IMG/VR virus record: IMGVR_UViG_3300007735_000926
Location: 69,683-133,682 of that record
Length of the DNA: 64,000 nucleotides
From: a virus
Lineage: Duplodnaviria; Heunggongvirae; Uroviricota; Caudoviricetes
Direction: 5' to 3' (one strand)
A model generated the notes under the pieces. It did not search any database, was not told the origin of the DNA, and saw only the letters and a list, made by a program, of their open reading frames with translations. The first letter of the stretch is position 1. Each line of letters opens with the position of its first letter. Shown here one piece after another: positions 5,530 to 64,000 of this stretch. Made by a program: the position numbers and the translations under genes.

Positions 5530-6288
5530 ATGAATGATAAGTTTAATAATATGAAAATCGCGTTCTGTGGTAGTGGAAATGTTGGCAAATCAACTTTAAT
5601 TCAGTCATTTTTGAAGAAATGGCCAATGTATAAAACACCTTTGAAAACATACAGAGATATTATCAAAGAAAATGATTTGAAGCATTCCTCTAATACTACA
5701 GCAGAAACACAATTACTTATTTTAGATTGGATGACTCAGACTTTGGAAATTAATAAGGACGAAAAGTATGTTGTGTATGATCGATGCCCATTGGATAATT
5801 TGGTATACACTCTTCATGCCACTGAAAAAGATTTGGTGTCTGAAGATGTTTTGGGTGTTACTGTCGATGTCGTTCGACGTTCTCTAAAAAATCTTGATAT
5901 TATTTTTTGGATCAAATATGATCCTTCGATTAAAATCGTTGATGATGGATTGCGCGATACCAATCTAAATTATATTAAAGAAATTGATGATATTTTTGCT
6001 GGTTTATATGAACAATATGCAGACCATTTGGAAAATACGCCATTCTTCATCGCAGAAGATTGCCCAGCTATTATTCCAATCGAGAATATCCCAAATCTTG
6101 ACGATAGAATTGCTTGGGTAGGAGAATTCATTGACCAAAAAGGTGAATTGATCGAAACACAAGAAAGTATTCTCGATCCCAAGAATCTCGAAATAATGGA
6201 ACAAATGTTGAGAGAACAAGGACAATGGATTGAGAAAGATAATCAGTTTAAACAATTGACTAATCAGATCAAGAATTTCAAGATTTGA
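5530..6288 (+). CDS. P-loop nucleotide kinase-like protein (AAA_28 / dNMP kinase-like)
   Basis: IAFCGSGNVGKSTL, VVYDRCPLDNLVY, DDGLR lid motif. Confidence 0.7.
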   Translation: MNDKFNNMKIAFCGSGNVGKSTLIQSFLKKWPMYKTPLKTYRDIIKENDLKHSSNTTAETQLLILDWMTQTLEINKDEKYVVYDRCPLDNLVYTLHATEKDLVSEDVLGVTVDVVRRSLKNLDIIFWIKYDPSIKIVDDGLRDTNLNYIKEIDDIFAGLYEQYADHLENTPFFIAEDCPAIIPIENIPNLDDRIAWVGEFIDQKGELIETQESILDPKNLEIMEQMLREQGQWIEKDNQFKQLTNQIKNFKI

Positions 6289-6292
6289 GATA

Positions 6293-7117
6293 ATGAATAA
6301 TGGTAAGATTGGAATTGGTGTTATAACCAAAGATAGAGAAGAGTTTTTCTGGAAATGTTGGAAATCTTTGGAGCTATGCTCTGACCATATCGATGAATAT
6401 GTTGTGGTAAATGATGGTAAACCTTATTCTGTCAACCCCTTGATTTATTCAAATCCTGTAAATTTAATACAACATGAAAAAAATACAGGCGTTGCAATTT
6501 CAAAAAATCAAGCATTACAACATCTACTTGAGGTTGGATGTGATCATATATTTTTGATTGAGGATGATATGATCATCAAAGATCCAAATATATTCCGAGT
6601 ATATATCAATGCTTCCGAGAAAAGTGGTATCCAACATTTGATGTTCGGTTATCACGGACCTGCCAATAAGAATGGCGTCTCCAAGGGTGAACCATGCCCT
6701 CGTTTAGTAGTGAATTATGGAGATTTCTCGTTAGCATTTAACCAGCATTGTGTGGGAGCTTTTTGTTATTATTCCCGTAAGTGTCTCGAAGATGTCGGAT
6801 TGATCGATGAAAAATTCCGCAATGCGTTTGACCACGTTTCCCATAGTTACGATCTTGCTTTGAAAGGATATTCCACACCTTATTGGTGGTGGGCCGATTT
6901 GGCAAATTCTTTGGATTATATCGAAGAGCAAGCATGTTCCGAGGAAAATTCGTCAATCAAGACTCCCGAATCTATGCAACAATGGGAAAATAATATTCGT
7001 AGTTCCATGGAGTATTTCAAAGAAAAATTTGGAGTTTATCCGTTTGGAAGAAAAGGTGTTCCAGACACAGACGAAAAAGAAGTGTTGACCTTTTTGAAAA
7101 GTGTGAGAGTATCATGA
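6293..7117 (+). CDS. Glycosyltransferase, GT2-like
   Basis: IGVITKDR, VVVNDG, NTGVAISKNQAL, FLIEDD motifs. Confidence 0.8.
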   Translation: MNNGKIGIGVITKDREEFFWKCWKSLELCSDHIDEYVVVNDGKPYSVNPLIYSNPVNLIQHEKNTGVAISKNQALQHLLEVGCDHIFLIEDDMIIKDPNIFRVYINASEKSGIQHLMFGYHGPANKNGVSKGEPCPRLVVNYGDFSLAFNQHCVGAFCYYSRKCLEDVGLIDEKFRNAFDHVSHSYDLALKGYSTPYWWWADLANSLDYIEEQACSEENSSIKTPESMQQWENNIRSSMEYFKEKFGVYPFGRKGVPDTDEKEVLTFLKSVRVS

Positions 7118-55031: not shown

Positions 55032-55304
55032 TTAGGCGGGCTTGAATTCAACCATGCCGTGAAGCGTGTCCTTGAAGGTGAACCAATCCCCGTTCGTTTT
55101 GATTTCCCTCGCATCGAACAGCAGGGCCGGATTGCCACCGCTTTCATCTACGAGAGCGAGGTGGTCTTGCACTGGTCCGAAGCAAGGGTTGACTTCAGCC
55201 TTCACGAAGTGGAAGCGTGCGGGATATTCCCGCATCACCCCGTCCACTTCGAAACGGGTGATGAGCGGGATGGAACGAAGGAGTGTGGCGAGCGTGTCGT
55301 TCAT
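55032..55304 (-). CDS. Array ORF, hypothetical (90 aa)
   Basis: Box + TAAACT + 9 nt + ATG; followed by terminator A. Confidence 0.7.
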   Translation of the reverse strand: MNDTLATLLRSIPLITRFEVDGVMREYPARFHFVKAEVNPCFGPVQDHLALVDESGGNPALLFDAREIKTNGDWFTFKDTLHGMVEFKPA

Positions 55305-55334
55305 GTCGTGGTCAGTTTATGCTAGTTTTTTAAA

Positions 55335-55562
55335 TCAGTAAAAGCCTCCGGGATAGCGTTCTGCCAGTTCCTCCCATGCTTTTTCGCATGCCGCTGCCTT
55401 GTCTTCGGCTTCCCTCGCCCACTTGGCGAGGATTGCATGGGCATTGGGAGTGGCCTTCATCCCACGCACGAAGAGGTCAAGGACTTTGTCACAGCTGTGG
55501 CCACAGCTGCCGTTGACAGTGAAATACCCGGCGTGGAAGGTGGTGGTGATGTGGTCGATCAT
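55335..55562 (-). CDS. Array ORF, hypothetical (75 aa)
   Basis: Box + TAGAAT + 11 nt + ATG. Confidence 0.7.
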   Translation of the reverse strand: MIDHITTTFHAGYFTVNGSCGHSCDKVLDLFVRGMKATPNAHAILAKWAREAEDKAAACEKAWEELAERYPGGFY

Positions 55563-55645
55563 GGTGTGCTAGGATTCTACCCTAGTTTTTAAACAGAAAA
55601 AGCCCCCGGCGTCCACCGTTCAGGTGAACACCGGGGGCGATTGAA

Positions 55646-55915
55646 TCAGAAGGTGCAGCAGCCGCAGCAGGGGGCATCCTCGCACCGCCCGTTGCGGTTG
55701 CGGTAGAAAGTCCCGCCGCTTGTCTTGAACACGTCAGAGACGTATCGGGAGCGCCGTGCAGAGGGCGTGGAGGGTGCAGACTCCACAAGGCTGCGGGCTT
55801 CGTCAGCCTTGTCCGCAGGGACTTCCCAACCCTTGCGGACAGAGTTCCAGCGGCCCCCCAGAGCCTTGATCTGTTCCTTGACGGGGTAGGTGTTGCCAGT
55901 AATGAGCGTGGTCAT
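55646..55915 (-). CDS. Array ORF, hypothetical (89 aa; GNTYPVKEQIKALGGRW motif, C-terminal CEDAPCCGCC)
   Basis: Box + CAAAAT + 9 nt + ATG. Confidence 0.75.
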   Translation of the reverse strand: MTTLITGNTYPVKEQIKALGGRWNSVRKGWEVPADKADEARSLVESAPSTPSARRSRYVSDVFKTSGGTFYRNRNGRCEDAPCCGCCTF

Positions 55916-55974
55916 GGTGCAGCTATTTTGGTGTAGTTTTTAAGCGTGTAGGATGCGCTTCCCCCCTTGTTGAA

Positions 55975-56340
55975 TCAAAGCTCGATCACCGTTGGCTCGT
56001 AATAGTAGTCGAGTGAACCGTTGAATTCGAAGCGGGTCCACTTCCCGTTCTCGTTGAGGCGGGTGTTGAGGATGGCGAGGACTTCCACATCACTGTGGGA
56101 TTCTGCCGTTGTGAGGTGGATGATGAAATCCTGCCCACCCTTGGCCTTGTAGCGACCGAAGGCCGGATCTCCAACGTGGTTTTCATCGCCATACCACTCC
56201 CAAATCTGGGCGCGGGTGATGTAGGGATTCAGGATTTCCACCTTGTCGGTTGGAACGATCACACCGTTGATCAAAAATCCCGCGTCGGTGTAAGTTGCGG
56301 TGACTTGCTTTCCTTCGTATCGCACTTGATAGGTCTTCAT
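55975..56340 (-). CDS. Array ORF, hypothetical (121 aa)
   Basis: Box + CAAAAT + 9 nt + ATG. Confidence 0.7.
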   Translation of the reverse strand: MKTYQVRYEGKQVTATYTDAGFLINGVIVPTDKVEILNPYITRAQIWEWYGDENHVGDPAFGRYKAKGGQDFIIHLTTAESHSDVEVLAILNTRLNENGKWTRFEFNGSLDYYYEPTVIEL

Positions 56341-56419
56341 GGCGTAGCTATTTTGCTCTAGTTTTTAAATAGAAAAAGCCCGGTGCTCACCGTTCAGGTG
56401 AACACCGGGCTGATGGCGA

Positions 56420-56761
56420 TCAGCCCTTGAGCTTGGCAAGGGCAATCTCGTTGAGTTGCCGGGAATACTTGGCGATCCGGGGATAGCCCTTGGCACCCTG
56501 TGGAGCGAGCCACGGCTCAATCTGCCAGTCCTGAAGCGTCCCGTGCTTCAGGAAATACTTCGCGGTAATGCTGCCGCGCTTTGCATCCGCGTGTTGGAAC
56601 CCGACATCATTGTCGTGGTTGGTGCGGTTGGCGTCCTTCTCGTCCTCCGTTTGACGCAGGAAGAGAGCGACGAGAGCGCGACCCACGACCTGAGCTTGAC
56701 GCTCGCGGGAGGCATTGAGCATTTCGAGGAGGGACTGCTTGGTGACGATGGTGGTCTTCAT
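56420..56761 (-). CDS. Array ORF, phage hypothetical (113 aa)
   Basis: Box + CAAACT + 9 nt + ATG; ALVAL..RQT.DE......N.VGF...DA motif. Confidence 0.75.
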   Translation of the reverse strand: MKTTIVTKQSLLEMLNASRERQAQVVGRALVALFLRQTEDEKDANRTNHDNDVGFQHADAKRGSITAKYFLKHGTLQDWQIEPWLAPQGAKGYPRIAKYSRQLNEIALAKLKG

Positions 56762-56835
56762 GGCGAGATCAGTTTGCTCTAGTTTTTAAATGAAAAAAAG
56801 CCCCCAGTGCTCAGGCGAACACTGGGGGCGATGAA

Positions 56836-57060
56836 TCACCAACCGAAACGGGGATGAGTGCGAGCTTTCAGAATGCGAAGGCGGCAATGGCGCAGCGCAG
56901 CGATGAGATTGGCCACTGGCATGTCGTAGATGTTTCCGGTTCTCGCGTTTCTCACGTTCAGCCAGAAGTGGATATTGTTGAATATCGTGGCTTTTGCACG
57001 ATACTCAGGAGTCGTTGGGGTGATTTCGATGATCGCGCCCTTGTAATGGATGGTCTTCAT
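56836..57060 (-). CDS. Array ORF, hypothetical (74 aa)
   Basis: Box + CAAAAT + 9 nt + ATG. Confidence 0.7.
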   Translation of the reverse strand: MKTIHYKGAIIEITPTTPEYRAKATIFNNIHFWLNVRNARTGNIYDMPVANLIAALRHCRLRILKARTHPRFGW

Positions 57061-57098
57061 GGTGCTGCGATTTTGGTGTAGTTTTTAACAAAGAGATG

Positions 57099-57131
57099 CC
57101 CCCTCTCCGAACCACCGGAGAGGGGGACTTT
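57099..57131. terminator. Hairpin type B (related copy at 61267-61303)
   Basis: 11-bp stem ccccctctccg/cggagaggggg. Confidence 0.65.
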
Positions 57132-57140
57132 TGCCATGAC

Positions 57141-57422
57141 TTACACCGAGACCTTGATCCACTCGCGGGAGTCGATGGCGACACCGTTGAGCATGGGGGT
57201 GAAATCTTTTTGGTGGAAACGGGCACCCGTGATGCCGTTGACACGCTCCCGAGTGGTGGGAGTGTTCCACCCGGCGAGGGTGGCGTAGATGCCATCCTCA
57301 CGGCGTTCCACGATCTTGTTGCCGTGGAGCCAGACGGCGTTGCCATCGGTGCGGGTGTTGCCAATGGTGCGGGCCTTGTTGGCGTGGAAGGCGGCGGCGA
57401 TGTTCTTGGTGACAGTTCTCAT
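57141..57422 (-). CDS. Array ORF, phage hypothetical (93 aa)
   Basis: Box + CAAAAT + 9 nt + ATG; WLHGNKI...AGW.TPTTRER.N motif. Confidence 0.75.
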   Translation of the reverse strand: MRTVTKNIAAAFHANKARTIGNTRTDGNAVWLHGNKIVERREDGIYATLAGWNTPTTRERVNGITGARFHQKDFTPMLNGVAIDSREWIKVSV

Positions 57423-57449
57423 GGTGCAGCTATTTTGGTGTAGTTTTTA

Positions 57450-57482
57450 AGCGTGTAGGATGCGCTTCCCCCTTACGTGTAG
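57450..57482. repeat. Type C intergenic element agcgtgtaggatgcgcttcccccttacgtgtag (copies at 59445 and 60863; shorter copies at 55943 and 58493)
   Basis: 33-nt identical in three copies, always abutting the 9-bp box. Confidence 0.85.
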
Positions 57483-57489
57483 TTCAGAA

Positions 57490-57765
57490 TTATTCCCGTC
57501 CGAAAAGCGGCTGGATTTCGTAATCCTGCAATTTTCCATTCTGATCGGGCGCTTTGATGACGAAAACTCCCGTCATGATTTCGTGGCATTCCACGGGGTT
57601 GTTGCGGTCGATCAAAAGAAAGTGGTCGCCATCGTTGATCTCCAGATGTAGCTGATCCCCGTGTTCATCGAATTCAGCGGGAAAGGTGAGTTGTTCACCA
57701 TCCACTTTTGCGGCAACGCAATCGTAGAGTTCAGACCAGAGTTTTTCGTATGTGTCGTTCGTCAT
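57490..57765 (-). CDS. Array ORF, acidic hypothetical (91 aa)
   Basis: Box + CAAAAT + 9 nt + ATG. Confidence 0.7.
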   Translation of the reverse strand: MTNDTYEKLWSELYDCVAAKVDGEQLTFPAEFDEHGDQLHLEINDGDHFLLIDRNNPVECHEIMTGVFVIKAPDQNGKLQDYEIQPLFGRE

Positions 57766-57792
57766 GGTGCAGCTATTTTGGTGTAGTTTTTA

Positions 57793-57960
57793 TCAGTGGG
57801 CGAAGGCAGTGAAGATGATTGCAGCGGCGTAAAGCATGGAGAAAAAAGTCACTCCGAAGGTGCCACCCACGATGGCTTCCCAGAGGGAAGCACCACCCCC
57901 GAGGAGGGCGAGTGCAGGAAGCAAAAAGGTCAGGGCCGCGATGAGGATCAGAGGATTCAT
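57793..57960 (-). CDS. Array ORF, 55-aa two-helix membrane peptide (not in ORF track)
   Basis: MNPLILIAALTFLLPALALLGGGASLWEAIVGGTFGVTFFSMLYAAAIIFTAFAH*; lacks its own box but keeps GCACC-ATG. Confidence 0.6.
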   Translation of the reverse strand: MNPLILIAALTFLLPALALLGGGASLWEAIVGGTFGVTFFSMLYAAAIIFTAFAH

Positions 57961-57971
57961 GGTGCAGTGAG

Positions 57972-58097
57972 TCAGGGGTGCTCGAATGCCTTGATTACCA
58001 ACGCGATGAAGATTAGTCCGATCCAGCCTAGTGGGGTGCAGAGGACGATGAGGACTGTGGTGAACAGTCCATCAAGGATTTGAGCAAGGTATTTCAT
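57972..58097 (-). CDS. Array ORF, 41-aa membrane peptide (not in ORF track)
   Basis: MKYLAQILDGLFTTVLIVLCTPLGWIGLIFIALVIKAFEHP*; box + 9 nt. Confidence 0.65.
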   Translation of the reverse strand: MKYLAQILDGLFTTVLIVLCTPLGWIGLIFIALVIKAFEHP

Positions 58098-58121
58098 GGT
58101 GCCGTGATTTTGGTGTAGTTT

Positions 58122-58352
58122 TTAAGCGTGTGAGGTCGATGGGGAACCCATCCATGCTTCAAACATTTCGCGCCGTTTTTTCTCAGCGTCTTCGAGTTTC
58201 AAGAACAAGTATTCGGACTCGGATTTCGAAAATAACATGCCACTGTCAGCTATGTAATCGCCATAGCGAGGACAATAATTCAGATTTACCTCCTCGATAA
58301 TTGGCAAAATGTAGCTCCCAAATCTTTTCGGTATGATGGCGAATCTCTTCAT
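58122..58352 (-). CDS. Array ORF, hypothetical (76 aa)
   Basis: Box + 9 nt; stop TAA is the first 3 nt of the next box. Confidence 0.7.
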   Translation of the reverse strand: MKRFAIIPKRFGSYILPIIEEVNLNYCPRYGDYIADSGMLFSKSESEYLFLKLEDAEKKRREMFEAWMGSPSTSHA

Positions 58353-58393
58353 GGTGCCGTGATTTTGGTGTAGTTTTTACAGATCTCGGTGTG

Positions 58394-58468
58394 TCATTTT
58401 GTCACACCTTGCAGGAAGTCGATGAGATCTTGGATGTCGTGCTCGGTCATGGTGGCGATGTCAGGCAT
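58394..58468 (-). CDS. Array ORF, 24-aa peptide (not in ORF track)
   Basis: MPDIATMTEHDIQDLIDFLQGVTK*; box + 6 nt. Confidence 0.5.
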   Translation of the reverse strand: MPDIATMTEHDIQDLIDFLQGVTK

Positions 58469-58523
58469 GGCACGATTTTGGTGTAGTTTTTAAGCGTGTA
58501 GGATGCGCTTCCCCCTTGTTGAT

Positions 58524-58811
58524 TCAGATCCAACCACAGACCAGCAGCCACGAGGGGCTTCCGTCCTCACCGTAGCCATCAGGCTCAACACGCTTGCCCG
58601 TAGGGGTCAGGCAGATAGCCTCGTATCCCCAGCGTTCCAGCAATGCGTCGGATGGCACCTTGAAGGCCGAAGTGATGCGCACTTGCAACGGTTCCGGGTG
58701 TAGTGGCGAATGCACAAGGCATCGGCTGTCTTTTCCCGGAATGAACGAGACGGGGAGACCCTTTGGGAGTGTGGAACCGTCCTTGAGCTTGATTTCCTTT
58801 TTGGTTTTCAT
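58524..58811 (-). CDS. Array ORF, phage hypothetical (95 aa)
   Basis: Box + 9 nt; C.TP.G..VEPDG....G.PSWL motif. Confidence 0.75.
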   Translation of the reverse strand: MKTKKEIKLKDGSTLPKGLPVSFIPGKDSRCLVHSPLHPEPLQVRITSAFKVPSDALLERWGYEAICLTPTGKRVEPDGYGEDGSPSWLLVCGWI

Positions 58812-58838
58812 GGCGAGAGTATTTTGCCGTAGTTTTTA

Positions 58839-58979
58839 TCAGGCGTATTGCGCTCCGATCAATTCATTTCCCCAGTAAACGGGACGGCGAGCGAAATCCG
58901 AGATGGCGATGGCGGCGTCCCGCGTGACAGCATAGGCGAGAACGCCGCCAGAGAAGGTGAATAGCATGTCGGTCTTCAT
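58839..58979 (-). CDS. Array ORF, 46 aa (not in ORF track)
   Basis: MKTDMLFTFSGGVLAYAVTRDAAIAISDFARRPVYWGNELIGAQYA*; TGA abuts the next box. Confidence 0.6.
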   Translation of the reverse strand: MKTDMLFTFSGGVLAYAVTRDAAIAISDFARRPVYWGNELIGAQYA

Positions 58980-59003
58980 GGTGCTGCGATTTTATTGTAG
59001 TTT

Positions 59004-59417
59004 TTACGAGATTCTGTCAATTTGATCCTCAATCATTTCGATTGGAATCTCTGGCATTTGCTCGCAGATATTATTCAACATGTTTTCACGCCGCCATTCA
59101 TCATCCGCTTGTCCATCATCTGAAAAGTCATTTCGCCAAGGATCAGACATGGAGCAATCATAAGAGCGGTATTCCTGATAAATGATGTCTTTTTGCTTAT
59201 CAGTAAGCTCAATTTCAACAATCGAATCAGGTTCTTGCATAAAAACAAAAGAATCAAAATCTGCGGTATTACCATTATTATCAATTGCAGGCTGCTGCAA
59301 AGCGTGATAGCCTTTGATGCCATAAGCATCCGCTCGCACCATTTTAAGAATCATACCGTCGAAATTGCGGTTGAATGCTAGACCATCAGATGATAAGACT
59401 TTGAAGAAACGGCTCAT
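59004..59417 (-). CDS. Array ORF, acidic hypothetical (137 aa), lower GC than its neighbours
   Basis: Box + TAAAAT + 9 nt; TAA within the next box. Confidence 0.7.
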   Translation of the reverse strand: MSRFFKVLSSDGLAFNRNFDGMILKMVRADAYGIKGYHALQQPAIDNNGNTADFDSFVFMQEPDSIVEIELTDKQKDIIYQEYRSYDCSMSDPWRNDFSDDGQADDEWRRENMLNNICEQMPEIPIEMIEDQIDRIS

Positions 59418-59478
59418 GGTGCTGCGATTTTATTGTAGTTTTTAAGCGTGTAGGATGCGCTTCCCCCTTACGTGTAGA

Positions 59479-59619
59479 TCAGTCGAGATTGAAAGCCCTT
59501 TTGTATTGAGCTTCAGCGACTTGCTTCGACAACCAACTTTGCTGTTGGAAGATTCGAGCGCCATAGATTGGTTTGCGCGCCCGAGTGAACAGTAATGTGA
59601 TCCAATTGATGATCTTCAT
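59479..59619 (-). CDS. Array ORF, 46 aa (not in ORF track)
   Basis: MKIINWITLLFTRARKPIYGARIFQQQSWLSKQVAEAQYKRAFNLD*; box + TAGAAT + 9 nt. Confidence 0.6.
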   Translation of the reverse strand: MKIINWITLLFTRARKPIYGARIFQQQSWLSKQVAEAQYKRAFNLD

Positions 59620-59643
59620 GGTGCTGCAATTCTACTGTAGTTT

Positions 59644-59778
59644 TTATTCGTTTGGAATTGTCCAACGATGGTTGATGAACCCGGTCACTTTATTGAAGTT
59701 GCGGGTGATCTCGTGGATGATGATCATTTCACCACCATCCACGAGAGCGAGATTCCAGAGGAAGAAGCGTTGTCGCAT
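59644..59778 (-). CDS. Array ORF, 44 aa (not in ORF track)
   Basis: MRQRFFLWNLALVDGGEMIIIHEITRNFNKVTGFINHRWTIPNE*; box + 6 nt; TAA within the next box. Confidence 0.6.
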   Translation of the reverse strand: MRQRFFLWNLALVDGGEMIIIHEITRNFNKVTGFINHRWTIPNE

Positions 59779-59799
59779 GTCCTCATTCTACTGTAGTTT

Positions 59800-60270
59800 T
59801 TATTCCTCCTTGTCTTCCTCTTCGTCCTCTTCGTCATCCCAAGGCTCGAATCCCATTTCGTTTTGAATGAAATCCCGGAATGCTTTTCGATCCCCATCGA
59901 TGAACACCCTTTCCTCCTCATCCCCAGCTTCGAAAACGGTCTCCCCGCAGAATTGCATACCTTCCTCGCAATAGCGCAGAGTAAACCCGTCATCAGGAAA
60001 CTGTTCACTCAGCTTGCGAATCGCTTCGATGGGAGGAGACCATGCGGTGTCGAATCCACAGGCACCTTCAGCGATCAATTCGTTGGCAGCTTCGCGCTGA
60101 TCTTCATCGCACAGATCCCACTTTGTGGACCACGCTTCGTTCTGCGCTTCCACAGTGTCGTCACACGGTGCGATCTTCTTGAAAGAAAGACCATGCACGC
60201 GCAGATAATTTACAAGCTCATTGGACATTGGAGAGTCCACCGTCAGTTGGTTTTGGCACCAGTTGGGCAT
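59800..60270 (-). CDS. Array ORF, DUF1281/YubB ferredoxin-like fold protein
   Basis: MPNWC.N.L, WSTKWD, FDTAWSPP...I.KLSEQFP, L.Y.EEGM.FCG. Confidence 0.75.
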   Translation of the reverse strand: MPNWCQNQLTVDSPMSNELVNYLRVHGLSFKKIAPCDDTVEAQNEAWSTKWDLCDEDQREAANELIAEGACGFDTAWSPPIEAIRKLSEQFPDDGFTLRYCEEGMQFCGETVFEAGDEEERVFIDGDRKAFRDFIQNEMGFEPWDDEEDEEEDKEE

Positions 60271-60296
60271 GTCAGTATTTTGGTGTAGTTTTTAAA

Positions 60297-60626
60297 TCAA
60301 ATTTGTTCAATCTTGATCCAGAACGAGTCTCCGATGTTTATGTTCATCTGTTCAAGAAATGTTCGTTCTTCGACACACAACACGAATTCGAGACTTCCGA
60401 ATTTCACATAATTCCTGTCGGAATAAGAAATTCTTTTCCAACCCTTTCGCTTTGGATTGTTGCGACTGAAAAATCCACGAACATCAGACGGCGCTTCATA
60501 AACGGGGATGCCCAGAATTGCAGTTGCGAATTTTCGACAAATGGCAATATCTTTTCCTTTCACATAATAAAAGGCTCCCAACCGCAGGTTCATCAAAAAG
60601 GTCATTCGGCTTTTGTTCGGTGTCAT
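60297..60626 (-). CDS. Array ORF, hypothetical (109 aa)
   Basis: Box + TAGAAT + 9 nt. Confidence 0.7.
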   Translation of the reverse strand: MTPNKSRMTFLMNLRLGAFYYVKGKDIAICRKFATAILGIPVYEAPSDVRGFFSRNNPKRKGWKRISYSDRNYVKFGSLEFVLCVEERTFLEQMNINIGDSFWIKIEQI

Positions 60627-60655
60627 GGTGCTGCAATTCTACTGTAGTTTTTAAA

Positions 60656-60838
60656 TCAAGCGAAGTAGTAGACACCACAGGCTTGAATGAATTTGTCACG
60701 ATCAAACCGTGGGAACTCCTTGGCAAAGGCATCCGCGAAAGTGTTTGCAACGGACAGCTTCTGTGCCCTCAGAGAGGCAGAGAACGATGGCATGGAGTTG
60801 ATGGTGGCGGCGACAAGTTCGAAGTGCTTCTTGGTCAT
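60656..60838 (-). CDS. Array ORF, phage hypothetical (60 aa)
   Basis: MTKKHF..A.........NPRFD..KF..ACG-type motif; box + 6 nt. Confidence 0.7.
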   Translation of the reverse strand: MTKKHFELVAATINSMPSFSASLRAQKLSVANTFADAFAKEFPRFDRDKFIQACGVYYFA

Positions 60839-60896
60839 GGCGTTATTTTGGTGTAGTTTTTAAGCGTGTAGGATGCGCTTCCCCCTTACGTGTAGA

Positions 60897-61109
60897 TCAG
60901 TCGAACAGATTTTCAACGTGGCGAACGATCCAAGGCTGATTGTGCCCCTTCTCGATTGCTGTGAAGATTTCGTGGGTGCCATAGAACGCTCGAACAGTTC
61001 CGGCACTGTTGTCGCGAACGACATTCAAACCAGCTTGTTTCATGGCCTTGACCATACCATCCACATGGTCCTTGGTGAGCAGAAACGACTTGAATTTTGG
61101 TTTGGTCAT
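60897..61109 (-). CDS. Array ORF, 70 aa (start revised to MTKPKF)
   Basis: Box at 61125 + 6 nt defines the ATG at 61109. Confidence 0.7.
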   Translation of the reverse strand: MTKPKFKSFLLTKDHVDGMVKAMKQAGLNVVRDNSAGTVRAFYGTHEIFTAIEKGHNQPWIVRHVENLFD

Positions 61110-61131
61110 GGCGTTATTTTGGTGTAGTTTT

Positions 61132-61236
61132 TTAAAACAGAACGAGATACCAGAGAATGACAGCAATGCCATAGAAAAGTAAACTTCGGGTTCCGACAGC
61201 AATGAGCGATACGATGATGGCGAGTAGGAATTGCAT
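61132..61236 (-). CDS. Array ORF, 34-aa membrane peptide (not in ORF track)
   Basis: MQFLLAIIVSLIAVGTRSLLFYGIAVILWYLVLF*; TAA within the next box. Confidence 0.6.
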   Translation of the reverse strand: MQFLLAIIVSLIAVGTRSLLFYGIAVILWYLVLF

Positions 61237-61317
61237 GCAGCGATTTTGGTGTAGTTTTTAAAATTTGCCTCCCCTCTCCGACCACCAGAGAGAGGAGGGC
61301 TTTACCATGAACAAATT

Positions 61318-61542
61318 TCAGTATTGTTTGAACTCTCCGGTCGCTGTCTGCGCATTGTATCCCGCAGCATATTCAGCGACTTCTTCGGGAGTCAGATCGA
61401 TGATCTTCTCACCCTTGTAGGTTCCATCAGGATACCAATGGGGATCGAAAGCCCGCAGGTAGTAGCTATCGGCACCACCACGGTCGAAGAGAGAGCCATG
61501 ACGTTTGCGGTCGAATTGAGGAAGCGTTGCAGTATCAGACAT
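61318..61542 (-). CDS. Array ORF, phage hypothetical (74 aa)
   Basis: HG..FDRG.ADSYY.R..DPH....E..EY.AGY motif; box + 6 nt. Confidence 0.75.
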   Translation of the reverse strand: MSDTATLPQFDRKRHGSLFDRGGADSYYLRAFDPHWYPDGTYKGEKIIDLTPEEVAEYAAGYNAQTATGEFKQY

Positions 61543-61566
61543 GCCAGTATTTTGGTGTAGTTTTTA

Positions 61567-61722
61567 TCAAGGGAAGTAGAGGATTGGGAAGGAGTATTCC
61601 ACATCAAAATCCGATTGGGAATAAGTCTCAAGAACTTCCAATTCTTGGAGCTTTTCCACCCACTTGCGAATGCGCTCGGGATCGATTCCTTCTTTGAAGA
61701 CCAGTAGAGTAGCGACTTGCAT
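61567..61722 (-). CDS. Array ORF, 51 aa (not in ORF track)
   Basis: MQVATLLVFKEGIDPERIRKWVEKLQELEVLETYSQSDFDVEYSFPILYFP*; TGA abuts the next box. Confidence 0.6.
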   Translation of the reverse strand: MQVATLLVFKEGIDPERIRKWVEKLQELEVLETYSQSDFDVEYSFPILYFP

Positions 61723-61743
61723 GCCAGTATTTTGGTGTAGTTT

Positions 61744-62001
61744 TTATGCGAAGCGGGCCACCACCGTCGAACTTCCCACCACCGAATTTACTTTCAATTC
61801 TTCTTTGAAGAAGCAATCGTTGCGATCAGAATTCCAACCGCTGTAGAGAAACTTGCGCCCGTCATAAGTCAGGACTTTGTTTCGGATCTTTTCCACATCA
61901 TCCCATCCATTAGGAACTGAGAGATACAACCATCCGCGCCCATCGGTGGCAAGACGGTATTCTGCTTTGATTTCCTTCGGATCGATTGTGGCGGTGATCA
62001 T
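61744..62001 (-). CDS. Array ORF, hypothetical (85 aa)
   Basis: Box + TAGAAT + 6 nt; TAA within the next box. Confidence 0.7.
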   Translation of the reverse strand: MITATIDPKEIKAEYRLATDGRGWLYLSVPNGWDDVEKIRNKVLTYDGRKFLYSGWNSDRNDCFFKEELKVNSVVGSSTVVARFA

Positions 62002-62022
62002 GTCGAAATTCTACTGTAGTTT

Positions 62023-62211
62023 TTAAACGAATTCGTATTCTCCCTTTTCGAGAACAATGGCAGGACCATCTTCATCTTCGAAAACAAAGATCTTGCCTTT
62101 CTCTTCCCAATCCGGCAGATTGGTGGCATGAATGAATTCGTAATTCTTTGTATTGTCGAGAACGAAATTGGTTCCCATCAGCGAGTAATTCTCAAGCGGT
62201 CGAACTTGCAT
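62023..62211 (-). CDS. Array ORF, hypothetical (62 aa)
   Basis: Box + 6 nt; TAA within the next box. Confidence 0.7.
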   Translation of the reverse strand: MQVRPLENYSLMGTNFVLDNTKNYEFIHATNLPDWEEKGKIFVFEDEDGPAIVLEKGEYEFV

Positions 62212-62235
62212 GCCAGTATTTTGGTGTAGTTTTTA

Positions 62236-62796
62236 TCAGGAAATTCCCTGCCACAGTTTCACTTCCCAATTCCTGCGGATGACCAGCCCGCGCAATGTCT
62301 TGCCAGCTGCTTTACAATAAAGTGGCAGCAACTTGGGCACACTATCATAATTGCCAGAGTTGAGTCTATTCTTCCCATTGATCAGAGCATCAAGACAATC
62401 CTCATTTGTGTTGTGAGTAAAGCTAACAAGTGCTGCAAGCTGATACTCTGTCAACTTAACCTTAACTTTAGACAGAACCAATTTCTTCGTTTCAATCAAT
62501 TCTTGCTTGAGGATAGACTCTGCTGTGGACATGCTCATACTATTGCCAGCGTATTTACCAGTGTGTCCATATCCAACAGTCAAAACACCAGCAGGACAAC
62601 GATATGGATTGGCACGATATGACTCGAAACTCTTAACTTTCTCTGTCATCTTGTCAGTCCATGCGATCTTATGTTTTGGTGTGACAAGCACAGGATAGCT
62701 TTTCAGATGTTTAACTATCGAAATACTTGGCACTGTCTGCACAGATAACGCGACAATTGCACATGTTAGAGATGCAACGATCATGATTGTTTTCAT
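62236..62796 (-). CDS. GH24 phage lysozyme with N-terminal hydrophobic anchor (start revised to MKTIM)
   Basis: FESYRANPYRCPAGVLTVGYGHT (E-x8-C-x5-T), QLAALVSF..N, AGK.L.GLV.RR..E. Confidence 0.85.
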   Translation of the reverse strand: MKTIMIVASLTCAIVALSVQTVPSISIVKHLKSYPVLVTPKHKIAWTDKMTEKVKSFESYRANPYRCPAGVLTVGYGHTGKYAGNSMSMSTAESILKQELIETKKLVLSKVKVKLTEYQLAALVSFTHNTNEDCLDALINGKNRLNSGNYDSVPKLLPLYCKAAGKTLRGLVIRRNWEVKLWQGIS

Positions 62797-62825
62797 TTGA
62801 ATATGCCACAATTTTGGTGTAGTTT

Positions 62826-63230
62826 TTATTCGCTGTCAACCACCCTATCAAATGGAATCTCGACAAAGTGATCCATCTCTTGCACCATAGCAATCGACTG
62901 ACGATCAGAATCAAATCGATTTATGACAGAGTATCGTCGGATAACCATATCATATTCCGCACAGAAATCATAAAACCTTTTGCTTGTTCCAAACCACTTG
63001 CGCAGTTTGTTCAGTGAACAAAAGCCATAACGCGATGAGTCACAATGATAATCACCCAAGCCATTTTGATACGGGGACTTATGATACGCGTCAGAAAAAC
63101 ATAAGTCTAGTCGAACTCTTACCAGAGAACAAAAATACCACCAGCTATTCGTGTCTTTCGATTTACAACGGTGATTGTAAAAACCGATTTGAGTTTCTTT
63201 GTTTTCAAGGCGATACAAGAACTTCGGCAT
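62826..63230 (-). CDS. Array ORF, hypothetical (134 aa)
   Basis: Box + 6 nt; TAA within the next box. Confidence 0.7.
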   Translation of the reverse strand: MPKFLYRLENKETQIGFYNHRCKSKDTNSWWYFCSLVRVRLDLCFSDAYHKSPYQNGLGDYHCDSSRYGFCSLNKLRKWFGTSKRFYDFCAEYDMVIRRYSVINRFDSDRQSIAMVQEMDHFVEIPFDRVVDSE

Positions 63231-63253
63231 GCCATGATTTTGGTTTAGTTTTT

Positions 63254-63427
63254 TTAGTCTGTAAAGTGAACCCAGACATTCCCATGGTCTGTATTTACAT
63301 GGTAAGTGCCATCCATCAGATCGCGCAACTCATCATTGCGAATTGCAGAAGCCAAAGTATCCAGAACTTCGGCAACGGAATTGTCATTCAGACGATCCTT
63401 TTCCAATTCAATAATGATTTTCTGCAT
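63254..63427 (-). CDS. Array ORF, 57 aa (not in ORF track)
   Basis: MQKIIIELEKDRLNDNSVAEVLDTLASAIRN...WVHFTD*; TAA within the next box. Confidence 0.6.
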   Translation of the reverse strand: MQKIIIELEKDRLNDNSVAEVLDTLASAIRNDELRDLMDGTYHVNTDHGNVWVHFTD

Positions 63428-63449
63428 GCGATGATTTTGGCGTAGTTTT

Positions 63450-63842
63450 TTACATGCAAATTACGCGGAGAGCATTATGCCCATTTTTACTCAATCCATT
63501 TGCATCCCAATTTTTATCATCGTCATGCAAACGCTGGACTTTCCTCCATTCTTCCAGAGTAATATCAGAATACTCATCTTTTACAACATCCGAAATTTTC
63601 AAACCTTCCAAAGCAGGAGCTTCGAAAATTTCATCGATTGCTGTTCCGTGTCCCATATTCAATGTTCCAAATTCAATCTTATGAAAGATTTCCAGATACT
63701 CAGGTTTCAAACACCTGCCGACAGCACACATGCGACCGTCATTCGAAAGATAGCTACACATGCCAGAAGCAGTTGCAGAACGATTTCCCGAGTGATAGTG
63801 ATTGATGGTTTCTTTGACGAGAGAAGTGAATGTGTGTTTCAT
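63450..63842 (-). CDS. Array ORF, phage hypothetical (130 aa)
   Basis: C.YL..DGRMCAVG.C...Q.LHD...W motif; box + 6 nt. Confidence 0.7.
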   Translation of the reverse strand: MKHTFTSLVKETINHYHSGNRSATASGMCSYLSNDGRMCAVGRCLKPEYLEIFHKIEFGTLNMGHGTAIDEIFEAPALEGLKISDVVKDEYSDITLEEWRKVQRLHDDDKNWDANGLSKNGHNALRVICM

Positions 63843-63843
63843 G

Positions 63844-64000
63844 TCAGTATTTTGGTGTAGTTTTTAAAGCGTGTTGTTCTTCAGTCAATTCAATTCCATT
63901 GAGGAACCAACCTGTGCGACCATTTGAATACTCCAGAGCAGGACCATCCTCACGATGCAGCTTGTTGTTGATGCGCCATTCGGTGCTACCATCAGCATGG
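63844..64000 (-). CDS. 3' end of an LHREDGPA-repeat protein (starts beyond the window)
   Basis: HADGSTEWRINNKLHREDGPALEYSNGRTGWFLNG...; frame reads through the box. Confidence 0.65.
   Translation of the reverse strand, partial: HADGSTEWRINNKLHREDGPALEYSNGRTGWFLNGIELTEEQHALKTTPKY

Follow-up and report, generated by a model that had tools for sequence, protein, structure and literature searches.

A putative leaderless, PeSL-like early promoter lacking a −35 element, heading the small-gene cassettes of an uncultured, far-T4-like myovirus

The window analysed here is a stretch of 64,000 nucleotides (nt), bases 69683–133682 of an IMG/VR virus record of 197,682 bp that has direct terminal repeats (IMGVR_UViG_3300007735_000926, here G000), in which a short motif, an invariant 9-nt box followed at three bases by a −10-like hexamer, stands ahead of one small open reading frame (ORF) after another. 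We consider it probable, with some reserve, that this motif unit is the early promoter of the phage, that it yields leaderless messages, and that it serves at the same time for the shuffling of genes by homologous recombination, much as do the PeSL elements (repeats made up of an early promoter plus a stem-loop) that mediate shuffling in the hyperplastic regions of the T4-type phages RB49/phi1, T4/PST and KVP40/nt-1 (Arbiol 2010, PMC2839356; Comeau 2014, PMC4122927). G000 is a distant (far-T4-like), uncultured myovirus, and the window lies in its early arm. The genome has 36.7% GC and 20 tRNA genes (16 of them inside the window), and encodes a gp23-like major capsid protein, a portal protein, a helicase, a ribonucleotide reductase, a CCA-adding enzyme, a UvsX/RecA-like recombinase and, at 65.4 kb of the genome, a gp55-like late sigma factor adjoining a gp47/SbcD-like nuclease. 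No cultured relative with mapped promoters can be called upon, because the array had no megablast match among cultured phage records and the capsid protein is only about 32% identical to gp23 of cyanophages. All the genes of the finding are on the minus strand; cassettes are numbered A in G000 and B in a relative, G001.

Within 55314–63866 of the window the minus strand holds 29 copies of the unit, and a recount agreed exactly with the figures of the earlier note on this DNA, which had been made from the letters alone: the hexamer is CAAAAT in 20 copies, TAGAAT in five, TAAAAT in two, and TAAACT and CAAACT in one each; the ATG follows it after 6 nt (13 copies), 9 nt (14), 11 nt (one) or 14 nt (one); and the ORFs have 24–186 amino acids (aa). 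A loose pattern matched 39 times in the window, against 3.5 ± 1.9 (maximum 10) in shuffles. That note had proposed scanning the genome and its relatives with a position weight matrix, and a 25-nt matrix at 15 bits or more gave 79 hits in the whole genome, all of them on one strand, and no hit in a shuffled sequence. Among 112 related viral loci, retrieved from IMG/VR by an exact 18-mer and a degenerate pattern, there were 688 matrix hits on one strand against two on the opposite one, the hexamer being followed by an ATG at 6 nt in 543 hits and at 9 nt in 70. The copies in G000, some 80 on a single strand, span 68 kb of the genome (123.8–191.7 kb), so that the array does run on past the window, as had been surmised, by about 58 kb. 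What had been described as a discrete array of about 30 cassettes is instead the densest part of about 80 presumed early promoters distributed through the genome.

A logo built from 77 copies has the box, TAAAAACTA, invariant at −24 to −16, and a hexamer (T/C)AnAAT in which A−11 and T−7 are invariant and −9/−8 are AA; C occupies −1 in 73 of the 77 and A occupies +1 in 68. Information is close to zero at −35 to −30, and a sigma-70 two-hexamer scan of the region remained at chance (15 sites against 12.4 expected), which bears out the claim that the units have no −35 element. The bases at −15/−14 are C/G and A, and thus not the TG of extended −10 promoters. The claim that there is no ribosome-binding site also stands, because 6–9 nt between hexamer and ATG is too short for one. 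The A after the hexamer is the predicted transcription start, since its distance from the hexamer is the canonical −10-to-start distance; in the 6-nt class it is the A of the ATG itself, and in the 9-nt class it lies three bases upstream (nnnnGC-ACC-ATG). In 21 orthologous gene pairs of G000 and G001 the box differs at only eight of 189 positions, compared with 38% of third codon positions. The unit is not confined to small genes of obscure function: outside the ORFan-rich part it heads genes for T4-type RNA ligase, RlaP, PspA, a PRPP-synthetase-like protein, a KaiC-like ATPase and DUF7275, as well as tRNA operons. Strong terminators, each a hairpin plus a run of T, abut the upstream side of several boxes, an order of terminator and then box that implies re-initiation. 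From these motif statistics, this anatomy and this strand bias we infer that the unit has promoter activity and that transcription would start on the conserved A. The earlier note's picture of a −35-less promoter starting on the ATG thus gains from the −10-like hexamer, the C−1/A+1 pair, the strand bias, the upstream terminators and the tRNA operons.

Could the motif act instead at the level of RNA, as a signal for processing or translation within long polycistronic transcripts, without being a promoter at all? The fixed distance between motif and ATG, and the many cassettes with no terminator between them, might be taken in that sense. The motif, however, also precedes tRNA genes, and it carries a −10 signature of the sigma-70 family whose pyrimidine–purine start keeps the canonical spacing even in copies without a following ATG; the re-initiation implied by terminator-then-box and the lack of any relevant Rfam match in 54500–64000 point the same way, and we think an RNA-level signal very improbable. 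Two other readings were tried and rejected. The −24/−12 geometry of sigma-54 promoters was ruled out by the absence of the GG and GC dinucleotides, and an archaeal virus, with a TATA-like box and leaderless genes, by the bacterial, gp55-type late sigma factor and the hairpin-plus-T-run terminators. The box is, besides, 4–5 bp too near the start for a TATA box.

What might read the box? We favour a host holoenzyme on the hexamer, with the box making up for the −35 element, with or without a phage factor. A version in which the factor is indispensable, the box being bound by a protein, either encoded by the phage or brought in with the virion, through which host polymerase is recruited with no −35 contact (a middle-type promoter), is compatible with the early-promoter explanation, and we regard it as possible but rather unlikely. 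It would suit the invariance of the box over hundreds of copies in many contigs, the absence of host-like −35 information, the half-palindrome AAAAACTAG within the box, and the three orphan boxes in alternating orientation at 54871–54939, as for a protein-binding site. Bacterial genomes, likewise, gave only single, chance-like matches across many phyla, with no clusters, and so no clue to a host and no host promoter class. There is a precedent for −35-less phage promoters in the Thermus phage P23-45, whose gp39 works with extended −10, −35-independent middle and late promoters (PMC7403470). Against such an activator, AsiA and the MotA C-terminal domain had no match in the genome, apart from the gp55-like late sigma no protein with sigma-70 region 2 or region 4 was detected there, no candidate was found, and a protein needed at every early promoter would have to be injected. 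The holoenzyme reading has a difficulty of its own to face: were the host a member of the Bacteroidota (which make no use of Shine–Dalgarno sequences and have A at −3/−6), its main sigma factor is not, to our knowledge, one that reads TAnAAT.

Comparison with other promoters lacking a −35 element helps to place the unit. Like P23-45, G000 has phage promoters that do without a −35, which would allow shut-off of −35-dependent host transcription, but here there is no TG at −15/−14, the upstream element is longer and more distant, and no gp39-like factor was identified. T4 middle promoters, dependent on MotA and AsiA, have a MotA box, TGCTT, centred at −30, whereas the present box has another sequence and lies at −24 to −16, and neither AsiA nor MotCF is matched. 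T4 late promoters, TATAAATA, are read by gp55 and gp33 with the gp45 clamp, and these too have no −35; G000 has a gp55 homologue and a late motif of its own, (C/A/T)TAAATA, but the box promoters are a separate class, with another sequence and a location in the early arm, driving tRNAs and small ORFans. The promoters of leaderless genes in Actinobacteria and Deinococcus–Thermus have TAnnnT about 6–7 nt before the start codon, and such genes were reportedly the subject of work by Cortes in 2013 and by Shell in 2015. They resemble the units of G000 in the −10 hexamer 6 nt before the ATG, the poor −35 and the AUG at the 5′ end (here a predicted one), but differ in that here it is a phage, with nearly all its early and late genes, that has the arrangement, and that the invariant 9-nt upstream box is additional.

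The late genes come into this because the late-type motif (C/A/T)TAAATA is followed after exactly 5 nt by ATG at 23 plus-strand and 19 minus-strand sites of the genome, against one in a shuffle. On the plus strand of the window such sites occur at 1657, 19998, 24014, 24765, 32789, 35334, 35859 and 48181, among others, ahead of the portal gene and structural genes. The geometry of T4 late transcription would likewise place the start on the A of the ATG at this motif. Among the remaining ORFs, words resembling a Shine–Dalgarno sequence are no commoner than in a control window (24 against 25). Judged by these sequence features, expression of both early and late genes looks leaderless throughout the phage. 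A bolder version extends this to the whole clade, with leaderless early and late messages, a promoter for each ORF, and a box read by a phage factor (possibly injected) or through a so far unrecognised contact of the polymerase, in place of the −35; we hold this tentatively, as an unlikely idea. If true, the promoter would be at once transcription unit, translation enabler and portable homology for gene exchange, a coupling that would explain hyperplastic ORFan arrays.

The cassettes themselves are as follows, each on the minus strand, with the position of the box and hexamer, the distance in nt from hexamer to ATG, and the percentage of amino acid identity to the G001 orthologue where there is one.
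63450–63866 (minus): A14, box and CAAAAT 63849–63866, 6 nt, ORF of 130 aa; orthologue B11, 68%.
63254–63451 (minus): A15, box 63434–63451, 6 nt, 57 aa; B10, 50%; order swapped with A14 in G001.
62826–63254 (minus): A16, box 63237–63254, 6 nt, 134 aa; stop codon is the TAA of the next box; no G001 orthologue.
62236–62828 (minus): A17, box 62811–62828, 14 nt, 186 aa; signal-anchored phage lysozyme (Pfam PF00959, E = 5.5e-27); B12, 85%, which starts three codons earlier, at a 6-nt ATG.
62023–62235 (minus): A18, box 62218–62235, 6 nt, 62 aa; B15, 79%; also in related loci L048, L077 and L098.
61744–62025 (minus): A19, box and TAGAAT 62008–62025, 6 nt, 85 aa; B18, 70%, displaced relative to A18/A20.
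61567–61746 (minus): A20, box 61729–61746, 6 nt, 51 aa; B14, 76%; promoter unit identical at 24 of 24 positions.
61318–61566 (minus): A21, box 61549–61566, 6 nt, 74 aa; followed by the hairpin at 61267–61300; its sole G001 homologue (65%) lies within a 141-aa gene 20 kb off.
61132–61260 (minus): A22, box 61243–61260, 6 nt, 34 aa; B20, 65%.
60897–61133 (minus): A23, box 61116–61133, 6 nt, 70 aa; B22, 82%; also in L048, L077 and L079.
60656–60862 (minus): A24, box 60845–60862, 6 nt, 60 aa; B23, 88%; start codon, promoter and upstream spacer all inside a 70-nt composite repeat (60831–60900).
60297–60653 (minus): A25, box and TAGAAT 60636–60653, 9 nt, 109 aa; not in G001.
59800–60294 (minus): A26, box 60277–60294, 6 nt, 156 aa; Api92-like ferredoxin-like domain (PF18406, E = 3.9e-14); not in G001.
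59644–59802 (minus): A27, box and TAGAAT 59785–59802, 6 nt, 44 aa; B25, 81%, with hexamer and discriminator different.
59479–59646 (minus): A28, box and TAGAAT 59629–59646, 9 nt, 46 aa; unrelated B26 in its place in G001.
59004–59444 (minus): A29, box and TAAAAT 59427–59444, 9 nt, 137 aa; the C-terminal half alone matches B27 (71 aa, 88%).
58839–59006 (minus): A30, box and TAAAAT 58989–59006, 9 nt, 46 aa; B28, 77%; promoter unit the same as that of its neighbour A29.
58524–58838 (minus): A31, box 58821–58838, 9 nt, 95 aa; B29, 74%; also in L048 and L024.
58394–58492 (minus): A32, box 58475–58492, 6 nt, 24 aa; B30, 62%, also of 24 aa.
58122–58379 (minus): A33, box 58362–58379, 9 nt, 76 aa; A33–A35 correspond in position to the unrelated B31 of G001.
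57793–58124 (minus): A34, box 58107–58124, 9 nt, 41 aa (57972–58097), plus a box-less ORF of 55 aa (57793–57960).
57490–57792 (minus): A35, box 57775–57792, 9 nt, 91 aa.
57141–57449 (minus): A36, box 57432–57449, 9 nt, 93 aa, 61% GC; Kyanoviridae Gp96-like (PF23790, E = 6.7e-8); B32, 75%.
56836–57087 (minus): A37, box 57070–57087, 9 nt, 74 aa.
56420–56788 (minus): A38, box and CAAACT 56771–56788, 9 nt, 113 aa, 59% GC; B36, 94%.
55975–56367 (minus): A39, box 56350–56367, 9 nt, 121 aa; B37, 70%.
55646–55942 (minus): A40, box 55925–55942, 9 nt, 89 aa, 63% GC; B34, 82%, transposed relative to A38/A39.
55335–55591 (minus): A41, box and TAGAAT 55574–55591, 11 nt, 75 aa; B38, 57%, with another upstream element in G001.
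55032–55331 (minus): A42, last of the array, box and TAAACT 55314–55331, 9 nt, 90 aa; homologous DNA lies elsewhere in the array of G001.

By the evidence of their codons the ORFs are real genes: between the members of the 21 orthologous pairs, positions 1, 2 and 3 differ at 17.5%, 12.9% and 38.0%, respectively. Most are ORFans, and they are unrelated to each other, as had been claimed, in that those in the window gave no mutual blastp hits at E < 1e-4. One gene start calls for correction, that of A16, which begins at the ATG 6 nt after its hexamer (134 aa, 62826–63230). The earlier note's rule of one box to a gene applies to the 29 cassettes but not to the further 55-aa ORF of A34. This is the sole bicistronic unit of the array, its 41- and 55-aa ORFs being 11 nt apart behind one promoter, and both, read by eye from the sequence, look very hydrophobic.

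It is in comparison with G001 (contig IMGVR_UViG_3300012663_000801, loci L006–L010), which is 70–87% identical to G000 in nucleotide sequence and largely collinear with it, that the second role of the unit emerges. About 22 of 45 cassettes are common to both arrays. There are four replacements and several transpositions between the two; thus A25 + A26 (by B24), A28 (by B26) and A33–A35 (by B31) have unrelated G001 cassettes in their place between conserved neighbours, and order is changed at three places: A14 and A15 are swapped, A18-A19-A20 correspond to B15-B18-B14, and A40 has changed place with respect to A38/A39. A12 is a clean indel of 329 nt between identical 18-mers, with a single box in G001. 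Of 22 blocks of blastn homology, 12 have their start within −6 to +1 of a box, and 13 have their end within +7 to +35 of the following one. Cassettes have evidently been gained, lost, replaced and transposed between the relatives with junctions at the box, in keeping with the proposal that it is a joint for gene shuffling. The promoters tell a similar story. Neighbouring ones agree at 19.3 of 24 positions, against 18.0 when permuted, a value reached in none of 5000 permutations; similarity is 20.6–21.0 of 24 between neighbours' promoters and 19.4 of 24 between those of orthologues; identical full promoter units stand before unrelated ORFs, mostly in adjacent cassettes; and a box variant with CTT is found in nine consecutive G001 cassettes (B32–B40) plus B23, the orthologous counterparts in G000 having CTA. 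These observations are what recombination between repeated promoters would predict, and from the junction positions and the promoter homogenisation we infer such a mechanism.

This puts the unit close to PeSL, and the earlier note's view of a distinct system gives way, since apart from the promoter type and the missing Shine–Dalgarno sequence the PeSL concept is matched (PMC2839356, PMC4122927). Both have composite early-promoter units, sometimes with a terminator stem-loop, between small ORFans of T4-like hyperplastic regions; in both, the units mark the limits of the indels, replacements and displacements that separate relatives, and the phage's homologous recombination is the presumed engine. 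G000 has the T4-like core genes (gp23-like capsid protein, portal, gp55, gp47, UvsX-like) and its 79 one-strand copies are densest among ORFans. PeSL mini-circles have been sequenced, with crossovers between the −10 element and the ATG (PMC2839356, PMC4122927). The two differ in that PeSL has the −35 and −10 hexamers of sigma-70, 17 nt apart, where G000 has the invariant box and no −35; in that the PeSL unit ends in a Shine–Dalgarno sequence and start codon, whereas there is no Shine–Dalgarno sequence here because the start codon is at the predicted start site; in the stem-loop, which is present on just about a quarter of the units here; and in density, which is far greater here, at one unit per 200–450 bp and about 80 per genome. 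On the best reading, then, we would have a PeSL-like promoter and recombination module with a new promoter architecture and a probably leaderless output, the concept itself being known.

It is fair to ask whether the box has any special part in this flux. If the unit were a promoter only, turnover being due to ordinary illegitimate or general recombination, the box would feature at junctions simply as constituting all of the intergenic DNA. At 17 of 29 gene borders the stop codon is no more than 3 nt from the box, so that any whole-gene event must end there, and as boxes coincide with nearly every gene border, junctions at boxes are indistinguishable from junctions at gene borders. Other points, too, weigh against a recombinational role: about 40% of the ends of homology blocks lie away from a box; the A29/B27 junction is inside an ORF; and the regional promoter subtypes could stem from regulation rather than gene conversion. 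The lysozyme of A17 adds a further one. It has an orthologue (84% identity in amino acid sequence, about 82% in nucleotide sequence) at 6001–6558 of an unrelated viral contig, L246, the one extra locus found by anchoring synteny on the lysozyme gene; L246 has no box, and homology is confined to the ORF (62236–62796, minus strand), so any uptake from outside the lineage must go by a route other than box homology. (The genes of L246, judged by eye, have a TTGACA-like −35, a 17-nt spacer and a weak −10, with ATG 7–9 nt later, and they too look leaderless.) Yet a promoter-only explanation does not readily account for the identical 18-mers flanking the A12 indel, for the homogenisation of neighbouring promoters before unrelated ORFs, or for a box variant running through nine cassettes of one genome only; and it passes over the 70-nt repeats, the phage's own recombination genes, and the experimental recombination of PeSL repeats (PMC2839356). 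We therefore judge it a minority possibility, to which we would give about one part of belief for every three withheld from it.

A more specialised alternative, an integron-like system in which the box would be an attC/attI-like site cut by a dedicated recombinase, is close to refuted. The cassettes do resemble those of integrons, being single ORFs of promoterless size, unrelated and in one orientation, each bounded by a conserved site; but here each unit has a promoter, the borders are direct repeats whose −10 hexamer keeps a constant spacing to each ATG, there is neither an imperfect inverted-repeat (attC) structure nor a common Pc promoter, and the motif also stands before conserved non-cassette genes and tRNA operons, over 68 kb. 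The complete genome has no match to the tyrosine integrase family PF00589. The earlier note had seen no recombinase in the window and suggested a search for one; the genome does have the UvsX/RecA-like protein and gp47, while a dedicated recombinase is neither needed nor found.

Returning to the reading we prefer, in which promoter and joint are the same unit, events might be pictured as follows. The general early promoter would be TAAAAACTA-N3-(T/C)AnAAT-N5-C-A. The host's bacterial RNA polymerase holoenzyme would bind the −10-like hexamer, and the box at −24 to −16 would stand in for the −35 contact, through direct contacts with polymerase or sigma factor or through a phage factor. The message would begin at the conserved A, which stands seven bases beyond the hexamer: in the 6-nt class on the A of the ATG, and in the 9-nt class with a 3-nt leader (ACC or GCC). 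Translation would proceed from the 5′-terminal AUG and reach just the first ORF of the transcript. Because leaderless translation serves the first ORF only, each small gene would need its own promoter, and this logic would lead to the layout of one promoter per ORF, with stop codons often fused, as they are, to the following box. Dozens of near-identical direct repeats of 25–70 bp (the promoter, with or without a shared terminator or spacer) would then feed the homologous recombination of the phage, by which whole units of promoter plus ORF may be deleted, inserted, replaced or moved, and neighbouring promoters homogenised, in PeSL-like fashion.

The idea of regulatory repeats as shuffling engines would thereby be extended from the T4 relatives among coliphages, Yersinia phages and vibriophages to a distant, uncultured clade. 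The clade is apparently abundant: the motif occurs five times or more in at least 45 IMG/VR viral stretches, out of the 112 loci, with up to 45 copies in 14.6 kb. Its consensus is TTAAAAACTAGA-n-TA-n-AAT, the CACCAAAAT form being local to the present array and its G001 counterpart. Shuffling would also be linked to an unusual logic of expression, with −35-less promoters apparently so placed that early and late messages begin on AUG. In practical terms, so stereotyped a promoter is a tool for annotating start codons and very small genes, even ones of 24 aa, and the motif is a clean substrate for studying how bacterial polymerase initiates without −35 contacts.

Around the boxes there are further elements, and the 29 units of the window fall into six with a stable upstream hairpin, six with a non-folding shared spacer element, and 17 with no spacer (the borders of 3 nt or less mentioned above). 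The individual elements are these:
54953–54991 (minus): Rho-independent terminator closing the array, of repeat family D7, with an identical 42-nt copy at 55597–55638.
55602–55638 (minus): terminator hairpin directly upstream of the A41 box; −35.9 kcal/mol, z = −7.05.
56377–56411 (minus): terminator hairpin upstream of the A39 box, a diverged copy of the repeat at 54953–54991.
56800–56829 (minus): terminator hairpin upstream of the A38 box.
57099–57126 (minus): GC-rich hairpin upstream of the A37 box, with a poor T tail.
61267–61300 (minus): hairpin upstream of the A22 box; −24.3 kcal/mol, z = −4.29.
57418–57487 (minus): reference copy of the 70-nt composite repeat (family D4), comprising the start-codon region, the promoter and a 35–40-nt upstream spacer that begins GGGGGAAGCGC.
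54677–54694 (minus): box plus TATAAT, promoter of the tRNA-Met/Gly operon, with a non-coding leader of about 96 nt.
54146–54163 (minus): box plus TATAAT promoter upstream of a 12-tRNA cluster.

Other copies of the composite repeat are at 55911–55980, 58461–58530, 59413–59482 and 60831–60900, with a diverged one at 58093–58162 (63–100% identity). The shared spacer element is also found in G001, but ahead of partly different ORFs. As a stem-loop it was ruled out, for it folds no better than shuffles (z of −0.6 to +0.9). The element adjoins some boxes on their upstream side and holds two extra CTACACG words.

The three orphan boxes at 54871–54939, which have no −10 hexamer, sit in a 330-nt AT-rich spacer between the last terminator of the array and the promoter of the tRNA operon, a spacer with about 84% conservation in G001. 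They may form a protein-binding site, as considered above, or represent decayed half-units like the ‘half PeSLs’ described in T4-type phages (Comeau 2014, PMC4122927). Outside the window (G000:C1:141397–141494), tRNA-Ile(tat) starts at the sixth base after a hexamer, at most 1 nt from the predicted start; its 5′ leader would thus be of 0 or 1 nt, leaving little for RNase P to remove.

Finally, the GC content of cassettes in 55000–61000 of the window climbs to 50–63% towards the tRNA-proximal end, compared with 36.7% for the genome, and the same gradient is seen in G001. The GC-rich cassettes mostly have the 9-nt spacing, with ACC or GCC ahead of the ATG. The nearest ESM Atlas clusters to A38, one of these, are mostly or wholly of viral proteins and give no clue to a host. 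The gradient suggests import from phages or hosts of higher GC content.

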